DNA of 64,000 nucleotides from a virus (IMGVR_UViG_2744054962_000001); one strand, 5' to 3'. Counted from the stretch's first letter, positions 38,901 through 46,637 are shown. Notes: generated by a model not told the origin, from the sequence alone. A program made the numbers and translations.

Positions 38901-39495
38901 CAATCTCATCATTGACGCTGTTAAAGCATCACGTCCGTTCGAAATGAATCCTAAGCGTTCTGCCGAAATCAACGTACTCATGACACGTATGGCGGCTGAA
39001 ATGGGCTTGGGTGAGGAGTTGATACGCCCGACTATTGGTATTAAACCCAAAATCATGATCATTCTGGACAATGCGAACGGCAATGACGCTCGTACCGGCT
39101 ACTTCATGGAGAACGGATACGACGACTTTAAGGCAAAACTACTGACAGTTGGAGATCTGCGCATGGGCGATCTTTATGTCACGGGTGTTTGTAAGAAGGT
39201 TAAGGACAAAGAGAAAGACTATACCAAAGACGAGATAGGCCAGTTCACAGACTTTATGCGGGAAGAAATTAATCTTGTACGACCAACCTACATTTTGACG
39301 TGTGGTAGTCGTTCAACCGCACTATTTAACAATAAGAGTAAACCATCAGATCTGATTGGTCGTAAGGAGTACTTCCCAGAGCTTGATGCAACCGTCTTCT
39401 ACGGATTTAACCCGAATATCCTGTACTTCCGACCGGAAGAAGGAGAGCGACTGGAGGCCATTCTGGCTGATATCGCGGAGACAATAAATAAGTAA
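35989..39495 (+). CDS. DNA polymerase III alpha-type (DnaE-like) replicative polymerase with N-terminal PHP domain
   Basis: 1168 aa; N-terminal PHP-like region, polymerase core motifs (GPGRGSSAGSLVAWCIGITNVDP; LGLIKLDVLGL; LFRPGP). Confidence 0.85.
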   Translation: MKALMVRTDFSLGESALKAENAVKIAREAGYTAVISADSMNIASVIPLQRAAGDDMAVICGVKLNIVDDPTYEHRAKLAKESMRCMESLERGRNYSFTALIKNEQGYRDICELMTVANTREQFYFVPRLSLEQLVSTYAKGNIILLTSDIGSVFQRNDFAKIISSLITAGGKDNFYSVVYPHPTPFYDQINVRAMKVASALKIEPVAFYPAYYESIDDADIKDIAHMVTNNIKIDQPHRLRIPHQRDNAINGRRHLLEALKAFSVRMDVPVTAAMASTTQDSIIDACTWRWHELPPALPKMADDEPATLMKLAVAGLRKRLTTKEFGYTPPASENRVYVERLKYEMNTLTRLGFCGYFLMVRDLMNHSRETGIPVGPGRGSSAGSLVAWCIGITNVDPIRHGLLFERFINPERLDLPDADLDFSQARRHEVIEYLNERYGEDYVAGIPNFTYLGAASALRDTARIYGVESADMAVSKELKNVEDDSLPLEELREQLASLDKYATKYPDAFNAACKLQSLMRGFGRHAAGMIVAGVPLTERTPVERRGDARCIAFDKRYCEAMGLIKLDVLGLATLDLLDSAKRYIKENTGEDINLDAISLEDRKVLDGFAAGYTQGVFQLESGPMRKLLKDLGGGIEPMSFKTVVATTALFRPGPIQSGMLDDYVSVAKGFMAPHSIHPRLEEVTRETNGVLLYQEQIMQSSRVLAGFSMAEADALRSAIGKKNMDKMKAIGSDFVERAQAGWVTLSLKNGGTVEVHKHAKLDCSDGKRRSYSEAISDGIDYVEIVSEQEGLSKEKAQEIWDAFEKFGGYAFNKSHSVAYSLISYQSMWLKTHYPAEFFAAALTILGEDKHQGLVKDALTYGIRVLPPDVNVSSNRIEIRTLEDGSQVLYAPFSAVKGCSENGCQAIMRAREKVGGKFESVAQFDEAVEKRACNSRVRESLHKVGAFASIEPGSLPATDPERLRDQAELMGNLIIDAVKASRPFEMNPKRSAEINVLMTRMAAEMGLGEELIRPTIGIKPKIMIILDNANGNDARTGYFMENGYDDFKAKLLTVGDLRMGDLYVTGVCKKVKDKEKDYTKDEIGQFTDFMREEINLVRPTYILTCGSRSTALFNNKSKPSDLIGRKEYFPELDATVFYGFNPNILYFRPEEGERLEAILADIAETINK

Positions 39496-39500
39496 TAAAG

Positions 39501-39525
39501 AAAACCCGCCTGTTGGCGGGTTTAT
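39501..39525 (+). terminator. rho-independent terminator after polymerase gene
   Basis: CCCGCC-tgtt-GGCGGG then TTTAT. Confidence 0.6.
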
Positions 39526-39798
39526 AAAGAATTATGGCGCTTGTTGAGGAAGTCACTCCTCTTACGCACTTTGTTTTGCCATGCCGGCAGTTAGCTTCTG
39601 CCTTTGACTATTCATGCGGCAACCCCGCATTTCGCCACAATGGGCAATTCACTTTTATGGAATAAACTGGCCGTTGTGTCGATTTAATTAGCATGGCCTT
39701 ACCATGCTAATTTATTCAACTTGTACAATCCTACAAATCTATCCACTCAGGCTTACACCGTCTTCGTTATTGTAGAAATGAGGATCATCAGCGTTGAA

Positions 39799-40014
39799 TC
39801 AGCTTAGAGCAACGACATTTGCTGCTGCTGGGCCTTTAGCACCATTCTCGATAGAGAATTCGACCTGCTGGCCTTCTTCCAAAGTGCGGAAATTATTACT
39901 CTGAATTGCCGAAAAATGTACAAAAACATCTTTACTGCCATCAGCAGGAGAAATAAAGCCAAAGCCTTTATCAGAGTTAAACCATTTTACTAAACCAGTC
40001 ATTTTATTAGACAT
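39799..40014 (-). CDS. cold-shock protein (CspA family)
   Basis: [23 protein letters not shown]...[12 protein letters not shown]1/RNP2-type cold-shock domain; start at internal Met of the track ORF. Confidence 0.8.
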
Positions 40015-40343
40015 AGATATTACCTTCTTAATTTTGTGAGCCACATAGTGCGGCGAGAATTTGATCTGTATAGATTGGGACTTACTTAGGCACTTAAGGA
40101 GGAGGCTCACGAAGAAGGGAAATCAGAAGATAACACTGAACTGAGACTGCTTTACTAAAACTGCTTACATAAGGTCTGTCTTGCAAACCAACGATGCTAT
40201 TAACGCATACCCCTTCTTTTCATGCAACCTTTATTTTTCAAAGATAACTAATTTTTGTCACCATTGGTTTAGTAAACGTTAACGAACCAGACGATGCCAG
40301 ACACCTTTACAGAGAACAGATGCCCGCCAATTGGCGGGCATCA

Positions 40344-40943
40344 TTATGCGCATTTCGCAATATCTTTGCGGCGTTTAATCAGTTTCTCCGCAATTTGCTC
40401 TATTTCGTTGAAATCTTTCGAGACGCTGTTTCGAAGCGCCAGATTCCATTTACTCAAAGTTCGGGCATTTTGGACAATTTGATCGCCCTCTTTAAGTCGT
40501 CCGTTATTCATGAGCCATTCAGCCACATCAGCCCAATCCCAGAGAGGAGACTGGCCTTTTATGCGTTGTACAGGGCTAGGGAAGTCGCCGCTTCCGCGCT
40601 TACCGTCTTTGAGCAACGCCACTGCCTGGCGAGACAGGTCTGTCAGTTCCGCGATATCGCTTAAGCCCACAAGAGCCGAGTCGACGGATTCAACAATTGC
40701 ACCGATACCGGCTGATTCAATATTGTCGACCGCAGATGCGATAGCTGCATCAAGTGATTGTGCTTCGCGGTCAAATTCTACATAGACGGAGTTTCCATAT
40801 GCGCAAATTAGCGCATCGTCACAGCCGTTTTGGTACAGCGCGTCTTCCAGTCCTTCCGTCTCATACGATACGCCTGAGAGCGTCAGAGTGAAGTTATAAA
40901 GCGCCATAGTTTTCCTTTGAAGATAGTTGGACAGTTTCTGCAA
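40344..40943 (-). CDS. HTH-containing protein, second gene of reverse-strand two-gene operon (candidate antitoxin/regulator)
   Basis: probable start at MALYNF (about 40907) preceded by AAAGGAAAAC; predicted HTH around GLSDIAELTDLSRQAVALL. Confidence 0.4.
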   Translation of the reverse strand: MQKLSNYLQRKTMALYNFTLTLSGVSYETEGLEDALYQNGCDDALICAYGNSVYVEFDREAQSLDAAIASAVDNIESAGIGAIVESVDSALVGLSDIAELTDLSRQAVALLKDGKRGSGDFPSPVQRIKGQSPLWDWADVAEWLMNNGRLKEGDQIVQNARTLSKWNLALRNSVSKDFNEIEQIAEKLIKRRKDIAKCA

Positions 40944-40967
40944 AAGGCGGCTAATGCCGCCTTGAAA

Positions 40968-41192
40968 TCATTTACAACGATCAACCATTCGTTTGATCTG
41001 TTTGGCATGGTTTTCGGGATTACCCGGAGTCGACCATACGCTCATTTGGTGAGTTTTGTGTTCACCTTCTGGATTACCGCATCGCAGTCTGCAAAAACAA
41101 TGTGCAGCACCACCAGCAGCTACCCAGATCCAGCCTTTACTTAATGCATAGTCAATGGCTGCTTGAATATGCTTATTCGGATGTTGCTTCAT
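40968..41192 (-). CDS. small Cys/His-rich protein, first gene of reverse-strand operon (weakly HicA-like)
   Basis: 74 aa; GW...GAAHCF...STPGNPEN...IKRMV spacing loosely resembles HicA/YcfA pattern; not verified. Confidence 0.3.
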   Translation of the reverse strand: MKQHPNKHIQAAIDYALSKGWIWVAAGGAAHCFCRLRCGNPEGEHKTHQMSVWSTPGNPENHAKQIKRMVDRCK

Positions 41193-41223
41193 TCGCCTCC
41201 GATAATAGTATTCTATTCACAGT

Positions 41224-41239
41224 GTTGACATCTGTCAAC
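41224..41239. promoter_or_regulatory. perfect palindromic operator GTTGACAtcTGTCAAC upstream of reverse-strand operon
   Basis: 7-bp perfect inverted arms, each arm contains a TTGACA -35-like hexamer; located about 30 bp upstream of ORF 40968-41192. Confidence 0.5.
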
Positions 41240-41446
41240 GGCGACTGAATTTCATCCGTTCATGCCACACCCCCATCCATCTCATGTATGTGACCTAAAG
41301 ATGGTCAGCACAGCTTACCAAAATAAGACAACTAATTATCTTCGGTGATCTCAATATCTTCCCCTGAACAAAGTTGACATGACGCCATAAACCCGTTCTC
41401 TGTTTGATATAATTGATACAGATTTTATAAGTAGGAACCTATTAGA

Positions 41447-41878
41447 GTGAACACTGATATTTTTTCTAAAATCATGGCCGATCTGGAGTTCGACCGCGAC
41501 AACCTTGAGGAAGTATGGCGTAAACAGCCACGGCTTTTAATGGAGTATGGGTCAAAACTAGCGCAGGCAGATCGAGATGTCGCAGAGGCAAAACTTAACC
41601 TTGAAGCTGTTGAAGCAAAGCTATACGACACAGAGCGTAAGAACTTGAGTATGAACGGCATTAAGTTCAACGAGTCTGTACTGGACGCTAAGGTTAAAAC
41701 AAACCCACAGTATCTGTCTAAACGGCAGAAGTTGGATGAAGCACGGCACATCGCAGACATATACAAACATGCTGTCGCCGCCTTTTCGCATCGCCGAGAC
41801 ATGATCGTTCAGGCGTCGAAGATGGCTATCGTTGAATTAGAGCGATTAGGCTCTGAACGCTTTATTACTCCCCGTTGA
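41447..41878 (+). CDS. hypothetical coiled-coil protein
   Basis: 143 aa, no recognisable motif. Confidence 0.3.
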   Translation: MNTDIFSKIMADLEFDRDNLEEVWRKQPRLLMEYGSKLAQADRDVAEAKLNLEAVEAKLYDTERKNLSMNGIKFNESVLDAKVKTNPQYLSKRQKLDEARHIADIYKHAVAAFSHRRDMIVQASKMAIVELERLGSERFITPR

Positions 41879-41995
41879 TTTTTGATAGATAATAAGTAAG
41901 TACTGATCTATCATTTAACAGCTCGAAAGAGCCACGAATGAACGAAAGCCCAACGCGCATAGCGCCATCGGCCAAATCACAACAAGGAGAAACAC

Positions 41996-44295: not shown

Positions 44296-44297
44296 TC

Positions 44298-46637
44298 ATG
44301 GCAAAAGGAAAATCCGCACTGGCACTTGCTCTGAAAAAGAAAATCGGTAGCAACGACGAAATTCAGAAAGTAACTCATTGGATTGATACAGGCTTTCCAC
44401 CGTTAAACAAAGCTATTTCTGGTCGTTACGATGGCGGCTTCCCATGTGGTCGTATCGTCGAAGTATTCGGTCCTCCAAGCGCGGGGAAATGTGTTACCGC
44501 AGACACCATGCTGCTGACGGAGCGTGGAATGGTAACAGTGAAAGAGTTGTTTGAGATTGAAGGGTACAAAGCGACATGCACTACTCGCGATGTAGAGCAT
44601 AACGTTGGACTCATCAATGAAAATGGCGTGATAGAGAAGACCTCACACCTGACATGGAACAACCGTCGCAAATTCAAGCGTATTAAGCTGGCATCAGGCG
44701 GTTATATCGAGGCTACGTTCCGTCACCCAATCCGTGTGGTTGACGACTTAGGTAATGTCGTCTGGCGACATGCTGAAAAAATCAGTGTAGGCGACACGAT
44801 TCCTTCAATGGTTGGCACACATCAATTCGGCGATCAGCACCTGGATGCCAATATCGCAAAACTGATGGGCTATTTAATTGCTGACGGATACGTGGCCTCT
44901 GAAAATTCAGTGAATTTTTCTAACACAGATCCTTTCATCAAGGATGAGTACTACCGCCTCATTTCGCTGGTATCAGACAAGATGCCAGTTACGAGAAAAC
45001 ATAACGGCTCGGAAGACCATGTGCTGTTTAGCAAAGAGGTGCGTTCGCTGCTTTTTAAAGAATATGGTCTGGAGTATGAGAAAGCTGCTGGCAAGCAGGT
45101 TCCGTTGAGTGTGCGTCGCGCCAATAGCGAGGCTCAAATTGCATTCCTTCGCGGCTACTTTGAGCTGGAATGCCACGTCAATGATGGTCGCTGCATTGAG
45201 GTTGTGAGCGCGAGTGGGCTGCTGCTACAGCAAATTCGCCTCATGCTCCTGAATCTGGGGATTACGTCAACTATCTCTGAAAAACACGTCGCGGGTTATG
45301 AAAATACATATTACCGGCTGTCATTCAGTGGCTCTAATTACGACCTTTTTCTGTCAACGATTGGTTTCGAATCTCCGGCACGTTTATCAGTGGCAACCAA
45401 ACGGGACATTGGTTTTGACCGCACTTACTCAGGCTATGTTCCGCACATCAGCGGCTTAGTGAAATCACTCTACGAGTCGCTCACCAAGACCACCCGTGAA
45501 GACTACGCTCTGGTAGACCACGTTATTGGCCGCGGCGATCGTGTCGGAATAGACAAACTGCGAGAAATCTATGTCTCCTTCATTGGCAGAAAGAATCGTT
45601 TTAACGAGCATCTGTTTGCACAACTGGCAGCGGTAATTGGCTCTAACTTGTTCTACGACGAAGTCGTGGCTATTGAGGAAGGTGAAGCACCAACGTTCGA
45701 CGTAGCGATGCCGGAAACACACTCTTTCTGGTCTAACGGGATTATCAGCCACAACACATTCCTTGCAACAGCAGCGATGATCTCCGCTCAAAAACAAGAT
45801 GGTCTGGCGGTATTCCTCGATCATGAAAACAGTTTTGACGTTGGCCTGGCTGTAGCCAATGGCCTGAACGCAGATGAGGATGACGGTCAGTGGGTATACA
45901 AGCAGCCTGATACCTTCGAAGACTCTGTAGAGTTGATCGGCACAATACTTAAATTGGTACGTGATGAAGAGCTTATCCCCGAATCAGCACCTATCTGTAT
46001 CGTGGCTGACTCTCTTGCGTCTATGGTTCCGAACTCCAAAGCCGAGAAGTTCGAAAAGATGGCTGAAGGCACTGCCAAAGACAAAGATCAGCTAAACATG
46101 AACGACAATACGGCACTGGCTCGTGCGACGAGTGCGAACTTCCCTACTCTGGCTTTGTGGGCACGCAAATACAACGCCTGCATCATCTTCTTGAATCAGG
46201 TTCGCACAAAAATCGGTGTAATGTTTGGCGACCCTACTACGTCGCCAGGTGGAGATTCACCGAAGTTCTACGCATCTGTACGTATCCGTCTTGGTGCATC
46301 GGTGATGAAGGATGGTAAAGAGAAGATCGGTCAGGACGTAGGCGCAGAATGCATCAAAAACAAAGTTGCACCACCGTATGGCAAATGCACCTGGAAATTC
46401 TACTTCGATCCTACTCGTGGCCTCGACGTTATCGAGTCGCTCGTCGAGTACATGCTGGAAGAAGGATACCTGCCAAAGAACGCCAGCGGTCGAGTAGAAA
46501 TTGGTGACAAGAAATACACCAAATCACAGATCGTCGAGATGTATCGGGAGAAGCCACTGGCTGAAATCATTGCGGCTTTGCAGGCAATCGACGACCGAAG
46601 AGCAAAAGACAACCCCACCGAGTCAGTAGAAGAGTAA
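44298..46637 (+). CDS. RecA-family recombinase interrupted by an intein
   Basis: exteins join as GPPSAGK|TFLATAAM (P-loop) with RecA-like L2 region GGDSPKFYASVRIRLG; combined exteins about 357 aa. Confidence 0.8.
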   Translation: MAKGKSALALALKKKIGSNDEIQKVTHWIDTGFPPLNKAISGRYDGGFPCGRIVEVFGPPSAGKCVTADTMLLTERGMVTVKELFEIEGYKATCTTRDVEHNVGLINENGVIEKTSHLTWNNRRKFKRIKLASGGYIEATFRHPIRVVDDLGNVVWRHAEKISVGDTIPSMVGTHQFGDQHLDANIAKLMGYLIADGYVASENSVNFSNTDPFIKDEYYRLISLVSDKMPVTRKHNGSEDHVLFSKEVRSLLFKEYGLEYEKAAGKQVPLSVRRANSEAQIAFLRGYFELECHVNDGRCIEVVSASGLLLQQIRLMLLNLGITSTISEKHVAGYENTYYRLSFSGSNYDLFLSTIGFESPARLSVATKRDIGFDRTYSGYVPHISGLVKSLYESLTKTTREDYALVDHVIGRGDRVGIDKLREIYVSFIGRKNRFNEHLFAQLAAVIGSNLFYDEVVAIEEGEAPTFDVAMPETHSFWSNGIISHNTFLATAAMISAQKQDGLAVFLDHENSFDVGLAVANGLNADEDDGQWVYKQPDTFEDSVELIGTILKLVRDEELIPESAPICIVADSLASMVPNSKAEKFEKMAEGTAKDKDQLNMNDNTALARATSANFPTLALWARKYNACIIFLNQVRTKIGVMFGDPTTSPGGDSPKFYASVRIRLGASVMKDGKEKIGQDVGAECIKNKVAPPYGKCTWKFYFDPTRGLDVIESLVEYMLEEGYLPKNASGRVEIGDKKYTKSQIVEMYREKPLAEIIAALQAIDDRRAKDNPTESVEE
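44490..45755 (+). mobile_element. intein with LAGLIDADG-type homing endonuclease domain inside recA-like gene
   Basis: begins with Cys directly after SAGK, ends ...IISHN followed by Thr; internal LAGLIDADG-like motifs (LMGYLIADGYV, FLRGYFELECHV); 422 aa. Confidence 0.75.

Follow-up and report, generated by a model that had tools for sequence, protein, structure and literature searches.

A HicA-like gene pair under a palindromic operator as a putative autorepressed toxin–antitoxin-like cassette of SSU5-type phage-plasmids

The described systems that lie closest to the gene pair treated here are the HicAB toxin–antitoxin modules, the AlpA/excisionase regulators of prophages and islands, and the catalogued defense candidate PDC-M06 of PADLOC. 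In most type II toxin–antitoxin systems, the antitoxin gene is located upstream and is more highly expressed than the toxin gene. The pair, referred to as genes A and B, is encoded on the minus strand of IMGVR_UViG_2744054962_000001, a viral DNA stretch of 64,000 nucleotides (nt) that was analyzed over its full length and is termed the window below.

The PDC candidates, 145 in total, were predicted on the basis of genes lying within BREX, DISARM, type I restriction-modification, and Hma systems and were called untested by their authors (bioRxiv 10.1101/2024.01.29.577857, Payne et al.). The supplement of the same work lists a cassette CAS_00046 with a count of 497, taken here as the number of RefSeq homologues, and the decision 'Assign as candidate PDC-M06' (bioRxiv 10.1101/2024.01.29.577857). 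Both proteins of the window match this candidate (PDC-M06A, E = 1.2e-19; PDC-M06B, E = 8.7e-33), with gene order and adjacency preserved. PDC-M06 is a prediction from guilt by embedding only, and no fold, operator, or mechanism was found for it in the text and supplements of the source paper. Literature searches did not find PDC-M06 named outside that paper, and searches on PDC-M06, phage Cyrano, and HicA-like zinc proteins yielded no functional study. In the GenBank record of phage Cyrano, the corresponding products are labeled 'HicA toxin protein' and 'putative antitoxin HicB', which the results below make half right. A first-pass annotation, made from the sequence of the window alone, had considered A and B a possibly undescribed pair; this applies to experimental work, of which none was found in the literature, but not to the PADLOC entry and the GenBank labels. 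The cassette is thus catalogued as a candidate yet uncharacterized.

Gene pairing and the operator

Gene A encodes a small protein with 4 Cys and 6 His residues, and gene B, located downstream, a larger one with a predicted winged helix-turn-helix (HTH) domain (Table 1). The 74-amino acid (aa) Cys/His-rich protein of the first-pass annotation was confirmed, whereas the size of its HTH protein of about 188 aa was refined to 187 aa. The proposed co-oriented minus-strand unit behind one promoter was likewise borne out: both open reading frames (ORFs) are present, and a near-consensus promoter lies upstream of A. The start of B was assigned to the ATG at position 40907 because homologues begin with the identical residues M-A-L-Y-N-F. 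A longer ORF from the TTG at 40943 (199 aa), obtained by mechanical calling, is unsupported, as the homologues start at the position of the ATG.

A profile of A homologues retrieved 80 loci from contigs representing one genome per species, with members in Enterobacterales, Pasteurellaceae, Acinetobacter, Neisseria, Planctomycetota, Latescibacterota, Anaerolineae, Balneolales, and Nitrospinota. Analysis by tblastn placed a B homologue 0–170 nt downstream of A in 78 of them; the two exceptions were a locus with a diverged B N-terminal domain (L081), with which A and B are adjacent in 79 of the 80 genomes, and a degraded locus with both genes disrupted (L072). In 24 loci, the two reading frames share 4 nt (ATGA). 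On plasmids, the numbers of A and B genes per genus were close to 1:1 (Enterobacter 81/82, Yersinia 63/63, Citrobacter 20/20). The A-B pairing is as tight as gene pairs get, and the cassette has the layout of a type II toxin–antitoxin system, with adjacent, co-oriented small genes whose pairing is kept over distant genomes and mobile elements.

The carriers are diverse. They comprise phage-plasmids including SSU5, and 63 Y. pestis plasmids of approximately 94–138 kb that we take to be pMT1, with which size and species agree. The cassette was further found in a P2-like prophage beside YefM/YoeB, within a type IV secretion gene cluster of an integrative and conjugative element, in an integrase/insertion sequence island, in a P4-like island beside a RelE-family pair, and at a plain chromosomal site in Providencia. 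Decay of the pair appeared one-sided in the few cases observed: A is frameshifted or truncated next to an intact B in three loci (L016, L053, and L057, all Providencia), and no locus was observed with an intact A lacking the B N-terminal domain.

The constant part of B is smaller than the protein encoded in the window. Planctomycetota, Latescibacterota, and similar phyla have a B that stands alone as a protein of 83–98 aa (typically about 84) and corresponds to residues 1–76 of the B in the window. The proteins from Acinetobacter, Pasteurellaceae, and Neisseria (about 148–149 aa) carry an HTH domain in addition to this N-terminal domain, and those from Enterobacterales (about 186 aa) a further C-terminal helical hairpin. 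Since the distant phyla keep the N-terminal domain only, this domain is considered the constant partner of A and the DNA-binding part an add-on, which fits a neutralizing role of the N-terminal domain.

Upstream of A, the first-pass annotation had pointed to a perfect palindrome at a distance of about 30 bp as a regulatory element. The palindrome, GTTGACATCTGTCAAC, ends 31 nt before the A start codon, and its conserved core is GTTGAC-N4-GTCAAC (6-N4-6) with half-site centers 10 bp apart. In the window alone it is not significant, as 32 of 100 shuffles yielded at least one match when up to 2 mismatches were permitted; its significance therefore derives from the comparison across loci. Of the 52 loci whose B carries an HTH, 45 have the strict pattern GTTKAC-N4-GTMAAC in the 150 nt preceding A, and the other seven deviate from it by one or two mismatches; among the 28 loci without HTH, none has it. 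Each matching locus (45 of the 80) contains a single copy, always 43–69 nt before A, and the pattern was found nowhere else in all 896 kb of loci, nor elsewhere in loci fetched later. Within the otherwise invariant arms, variation is limited to position 4 (G/T) and position 13 (C/A), the central positions 8–10 are free, and jointly changed arms (GTTTAC...GTAAAC) are seen in loci of Pasteurellaceae, Neisseria, and Moraxellaceae. The palindrome is a real cis-element. A further half-site, GTTGACA near 41372 (41373–41379), which had been noted as consistent with autoregulation, did not hold up: the heptamer occurs 7 times in the window versus 9.8 expected, and it has no counterpart in other loci.

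The −35 hexamer of the A promoter sits within GTTGACATCTGTCAAC; the left arm forms the −35 element, and the right arm falls within the promoter spacer. A −10-like hexamer was detected 15–18 nt from the −35 element in 40 of the 45 palindrome-bearing loci (exactly 17 nt in 27). The strict co-occurrence of the palindrome with the HTH part of B makes autoregulation by B through this site a strong inference from the sequence comparison. A B dimer bound at the palindrome would exclude RNA polymerase. As the 64-kb window contains a single copy of the operator, no wider regulon is visible. In the copy from Y. pestis NCTC5923 (L011, 108-kb contig, probably from a pMT1-type plasmid), the right operator arm is degenerate (GTTGACACGCGCTCAC) and A has 83 aa; regulation of the cassette may be altered in Y. 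pestis.

The sequence CGGAGG before A is kept across Enterobacterales loci. In the window, A and B are separated by 60 nt, and a GC-rich hairpin directly follows the A stop codon; a terminator scan of the window did not call it. Where the A-B spacer measures 45 nt or more (21 loci, Enterobacterales), A is followed by a hairpin in 17 cases, of unrelated sequence each time; lineages whose B has about 148 aa show the ATGA overlap of both genes in place of the spacer hairpin. A terminator function of these hairpins is unproven because only one of the 17 shows a distinct T-run when counted strictly, and the hairpin may represent an attenuator or mRNA stabilizer.

Predicted folds and conserved residues

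The AlphaFold2 model of A (predicted local distance difference test, pLDDT, 89.8) consists of a helix, three strands, and a helix, with an additional short helix in the loop between strands 2 and 3. This is the HicA-like α1-β1-β2-β3-α2 fold, related to that of double-stranded RNA-binding domains, and HicA chains were the best structural matches. A Foldseek search of the model against the PDB gave nothing significant, Pfam and NCBIfam scans of A returned no family above threshold, and PHROGs assigned A to phrog_5923, a family of unknown function. When 1.84 billion representative proteins were searched with a profile, 716 A clusters (50% identity) were identified, all of them small proteins. In searches of PDB sequences with the A-family profile no HicA chain was retrieved; the A and B searches gave matches at chance level only (lectins, thioredoxin glutathione reductase, and others). 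The loose resemblance of A to HicA noted in the first-pass annotation is retained at the level of the predicted fold, but not as a match to any HicA sequence model.

Alignment of 275 distinct members of the A family revealed ten near-invariant residues (H4, K7, G20, W21, H31, C38, T55, P56, A63, and C73). H31 is present in 268 of the 275 sequences and is located after G27, directly before strand 2, at the position of the conserved His23 of E. coli HicA, which we take to be that of the catalytic His of HicA. By analogy, H31 is the candidate catalytic residue of A. In the only significant hhalign match, which is non-collinear and covers 20–22 columns (probability 83%), A residues 1–22 (HPNKxI..AI) were aligned to residues 35–56 of E. 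coli HicA (PRHPxxEI..AI, before helix 2). This match concerns a motif only, the collinear alignment being insignificant, and it was not used as evidence of homology; it could reflect motif convergence or a rearranged active site, and in the bolder reading given below it would hint at an active site built differently from that of classical HicA.

C38, H45, H48, and C73 are candidate Cys2His2 ligands in the A protein of the window. Across the family C38 and C73 are near-invariant, and the other two ligands swap position between subfamilies: members with at least two Cys/His residues in the loop (HxxH in the subfamily of the window) usually have no His after C73 (141 of 168 sequences), and those with a single Cys or His in the loop (nearly always Cys) have a C-x-H tail in 79 of 84 sequences. 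Because the count of four ligands is kept at alternative positions, a structural zinc site is assumed, and A probably binds zinc via this Cys2His2 site. Sub-threshold matches to Pfam RuBisCO_small were obtained for 33 of 44 close A homologues (best E = 1.2e-4), and a Shewanella homologue is named 'ribulose bisphosphate carboxylase small subunit' in its NCBI record, a probable misannotation.

The AlphaFold2 model of B (pLDDT 92.1) has three parts (Table 1). PHROGs assigned the protein to phrog_2620 ('excisionase and transcriptional regulator'), with weaker excisionase matches over residues 71–150 (phrog_66 and phrog_2790, E = 2e-4 to 5e-4). Some B homologues are named AlpA family by NCBI, and SSU5_054 is annotated as AlpA-like. 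Pfam and NCBIfam scans of B gave no match above threshold, leaving the N-terminal domain without a recognized family; it contains the invariant motifs GCDD and FDRE with acidic and Cys residues. Foldseek against the PDB returned only generic ferredoxin-like matches for this domain (S6, PII, ACT, and Atx1, E ≥ 0.02), and HicB was not among the matches listed for B. The first-pass suggestion that B could be a HicB-type partner was refuted at the levels of sequence, profile, and predicted fold: hhalign of B with E. coli HicB gave a probability of 0.17%, no HicB model of Pfam or NCBIfam was matched, and the predicted N-terminal domain is ferredoxin-like. Judged by these comparisons and models, B is not HicB.

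The phage-plasmid cargo site

Bases 39700–41900 of the window share 99.7% identity with Escherichia phage Cyrano (OV696614, 108 kb), and both Cyrano and the window represent SSU5-type phage-plasmids. Relatives are Salmonella phage SSU5 and hundreds of nonmobilizable plasmids of approximately 95–145 kb from E. coli, Enterobacter, Citrobacter, Klebsiella, Cronobacter, and Yersinia pestis. These relatives belong to the SSU5 group of phage-plasmids (PMC7969092). The cassette is surrounded by genes for a phage DNA polymerase III alpha subunit (dnaE), a UvsY-like protein, a gp32-like single-stranded DNA-binding protein, a 5'-3' exonuclease, and RecA.

The interval between dnaE and the uvsY-like gene is the common site of A and B in Cyrano, SSU5, and Enterobacter phage-plasmids. 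The site was compared between the window (39462–41447), L091 (6820–6981), and L100 (2346–3016). The dnaE/uvsY-like interval is a variable cargo site in SSU5-type phage-plasmids, with the cassette intact, absent, or decayed. The intact state contains both genes and the operator. The whole stretch 39462–41447 is absent from the related phage-plasmid PhiR41_1, which has an empty site. In part of the E. coli/E. fergusonii plasmids, A, the operator, and the first 21 or so codons of B are gone; this decayed form was examined in one example, the E. fergusonii plasmid L100, and about 34 plasmids of the E. coli group may carry it, as estimated from 114 B versus 80 A records in E. coli. By base composition, the island is not set apart as foreign.

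The minus-strand block had been described as consisting of two genes; the A-B pair stands, but the block holds a third gene, a cspA-like cold-shock gene downstream of B with its own leader, promoter, and terminator. An Rfam scan of 39400–41600 had the cspA thermoregulator of this gene as its sole match, and neither an RNA antitoxin nor another known RNA was found there. Related csp genes (82–85% nt identity) are present in unrelated E. coli phages, e.g., 2H10 and Tritos. The plus-strand gene at 41447–41878, annotated as UvsY, showed a strong match to phrog_2058 (unknown function) and a weak one to the UvsY-like mediator family phrog_231 (E = 2e-4), and its UvsY label is tentative because of the weakness of the latter. 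In related Enterobacter phage-plasmids (L082, 10053–14305 and 2548–4890), an HNH/NUMOD4 homing-endonuclease gene splits dnaE, and RecA contains an intein with a LAGLIDADG domain. The RecA gene of the window (about 44297–46636) is also approximately 2.3 kb long, and therefore an intein is probable there too.

Table 1. Positions of the cassette and of adjoining features in the window
Feature	Position (nt)	Strand	Remarks
Accessory cargo island	39462–41447		Between dnaE and uvsY-like gene; carries cspA-like gene and B-A cassette
Terminator of cspA-like gene	39502–39523		
cspA-like cold-shock gene	39774–40192 (coding sequence 39799–40014)	−	Complete cspA thermoregulator leader (Rfam RF01766, 187 bits)
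Intrinsic-terminator-like hairpin at the end of the A-B unit	40319–40342	−	10 pairs, 8 of them G-C; T-rich tail
Gene B	40344–40907	−	187 aa from ATG at 40907; putative antitoxin and autorepressor
B C-terminal helical hairpin		−	aa 143–186; two helices
B winged HTH, AlpA/excisionase-like	40503–40673	−	aa ~79–135
B N-terminal domain	40680–40907	−	aa 1–76; ferredoxin-like β-α-β-β-α-β
GC-rich hairpin AAGGCGGC-ATTA-GCCGCCTT	40944–40963	−	Directly 3' of A stop codon; weak U-tract; minimum free energy −16.1 kcal/mol, z −2.07
Gene A	40968–41192	−	74 aa; putative toxin
Shine-Dalgarno sequence GGAGG of gene A	41196–41200	−	Read from sequence; 5 nt upstream of A
Sigma-70 promoter of A	41210–41238	−	−35 TTGACA (41238–41233), 17-nt spacer, −10 TAGAAT (41215–41210); 11/12 consensus match
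Operator palindrome GTTGACATCTGTCAAC	41224–41239		7-bp arms, 2-bp center

Proposed function, alternatives, and relation to known systems

What the analysis shows is the pairing of the genes, the conservation of promoter and operator, the predicted folds, and the mobility of the cassette. Taken together, we lean toward an autonomous, horizontally mobile, autorepressed type II toxin–antitoxin-like (or abortive-infection) cassette residing on mobile elements, for which toxicity, neutralization, binding of DNA and zinc, and a role in defense are what we infer. In this scheme, A would be a small, zinc-stabilized protein of HicA fold, probably an RNA-cleaving toxin with His31 as catalytic residue, and B would neutralize A via its ferredoxin-like N-terminal domain. 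The winged HTH of the B dimer would bind GTTGAC-N4-GTCAAC and repress the operon, because the site covers the −35 hexamer and spacer of its sole promoter. As dispensable cargo of the phage-plasmid, the cassette would stabilize the plasmid state and/or exclude competing phages. The match of both proteins to PDC-M06, a defense candidate, was counted in favor of this reading. A bolder version is possible but held with more doubt than confidence: a new toxin–antitoxin/abortive-infection family in which a zinc-clamped nuclease of HicA fold is paired with a novel ferredoxin-like antitoxin domain, which stands alone in Planctomycetota and gained a winged-helix autorepressor in Gammaproteobacteria, the whole serving as an anti-phage or addiction weapon of SSU5-type phage-plasmids, apparently including those of the Y. 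pestis pMT1 type.

Several results weigh against a toxin–antitoxin function based on a HicA-like toxin. The Pfam model PF07927 (HicA_toxin) remained silent at E values up to 10 for the A protein of the window, 44 close homologues, and 60 diverse members, and the collinear profile-profile alignment of A with HicA, which pairs H31 with H23 of E. coli HicA, reached a probability of only 0.2%. The comparison profile was built from E. coli-type HicA and also misses other HicAs in the PDB, and because of this the sequence negatives are weak evidence. On the side of B, profile, fold, and family searches gave no match of the N-terminal domain to any known antitoxin. The asymmetry of decay is based on three loci from a single genus, Providencia. 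A separate promoter for B was not found inside A or in the A-B spacer, and the spacer hairpin, if it terminated transcription, would lead to more message for the putative toxin than for the antitoxin, a poor fit to a simple toxin–antitoxin model.

The same hairpin bears on two further explanations. In a purely regulatory pair, B would be a transcription factor and A a small zinc-binding cofactor or anti-repressor, neither of them toxic, that together control genes of the phage-plasmid or host. The predicted winged HTH and conserved operator, the constant location between genes of replication and recombination in many elements of the SSU5 type, and the excess of A that the hairpin would favor are all compatible with such a role. 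We nevertheless regard it as unlikely, given that the operator, single in the 64-kb window and present once per locus, is always at the cassette's own promoter with no regulon in sight, and that the cassette is dispensable in related phage-plasmids and also resides in unrelated mobile elements and at plain chromosomal sites. Transcription control is moreover not the core function, because the partner of A in distant phyla has no DNA-binding domain. Reversed roles or another type of system, with B or its N-terminal domain as the effector and A as an abundant, upstream-encoded neutralizer or sensor, would agree with a hairpin that raises A relative to B, with the usual gene order and expression of type II systems, in which the upstream gene is that of the antitoxin, and with the invariant GCDD and FDRE motifs in the B N-terminal domain. 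This assignment is improbable in view of the three loci with a disrupted A and an intact B, the B N-terminal domain never being lost beside an intact A, the predicted fold that A shares with a known toxin family, and the fusion of a DNA-binding domain to the partner, which is the usual mark of an antitoxin.

Canonical HicAB, with A as a HicA mRNA interferase and B as the HicB antitoxin, is what the GenBank annotation of Cyrano implies, and we give it very little credence. HicA_toxin was unmatched in about 100 A members even at the permissive cutoff given above, the hhalign and Pfam comparisons of B with HicB were negative, and the β-α-β-β-α-β arrangement predicted for its N-terminal domain drew ferredoxin-like matches. 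In addition, A has an extra Cys/His site and loop, whereas the alignment of E. coli-type HicA contains no conserved Cys column and comprises only 58 residues. Least probable by far is a palindrome that arose as a chance by-product of a strong promoter, with TTGACA on both strands and no operator function. The frequency of matches in shuffled windows and the identity of one arm with the −35 consensus itself would allow for it, but the second arm is needless for the promoter and was yet kept in 45 loci while the center varied, both arms shift together in Pasteurellaceae, Neisseria, and Moraxellaceae, and the pattern is missing wherever B has no HTH.

If A is a toxin, as the autorepressed toxin–antitoxin-like reading holds, the family would add a HicA fold missed by sequence models together with a new antitoxin domain and operator. 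PDC-M06 gains a concrete mechanistic hypothesis and named residues. The cassette is present on hundreds of phage-plasmids of clinical Enterobacteriaceae and on the 63 Y. pestis plasmids of pMT1 size; because of this wide carriage, a contribution to stable carriage of phage-plasmids or to phage exclusion is possible. Two existing annotations are apparently wrong, namely the 'HicB' label of the phage Cyrano product and the name 'RuBisCO small subunit' given to the Shewanella homologue.

The comparison with AlpA/excisionase regulators, the winged-helix proteins of the MerR superfamily that serve prophages and islands, concerns residues ~79–135 of B. In contrast to these, B contains an additional domain at its N-terminus, which is the constant partner of A, and its own promoter carries a palindromic operator; B is generally not adjacent to an integrase, and there is no indication of a function in excision. 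The likeness to HicAB (E. coli, 6hpb; B. pseudomallei, 6g26; S. pneumoniae, 5yrz; Y. pestis HicA3B3, 4p78) concerns several features. Both have a small upstream protein of α-β-β-β-α fold (from the model in the case of A) with an invariant His at the start of strand 2, a downstream partner composed of a protein-binding N-terminal and a DNA-binding C-terminal domain (predicted here), and a palindromic operator at the promoter. They differ in that no HicA sequence model detects A, which has an N-terminal HPNK motif, a longer loop between strands 2 and 3, and a four-ligand Cys/His site, all of them lacking in E. coli-type HicA. The N-terminal domain of B is predicted to be ferredoxin-like and not of the partial RNase H-like fold of HicB, and its DNA-binding domain is a winged helix of the AlpA/excisionase type in place of the ribbon-helix-helix or Xre domain. 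As far as the models can be trusted, the cassette would follow the toxin–antitoxin logic of HicA-like systems while pairing a zinc-bearing effector with a partner domain of a new kind.

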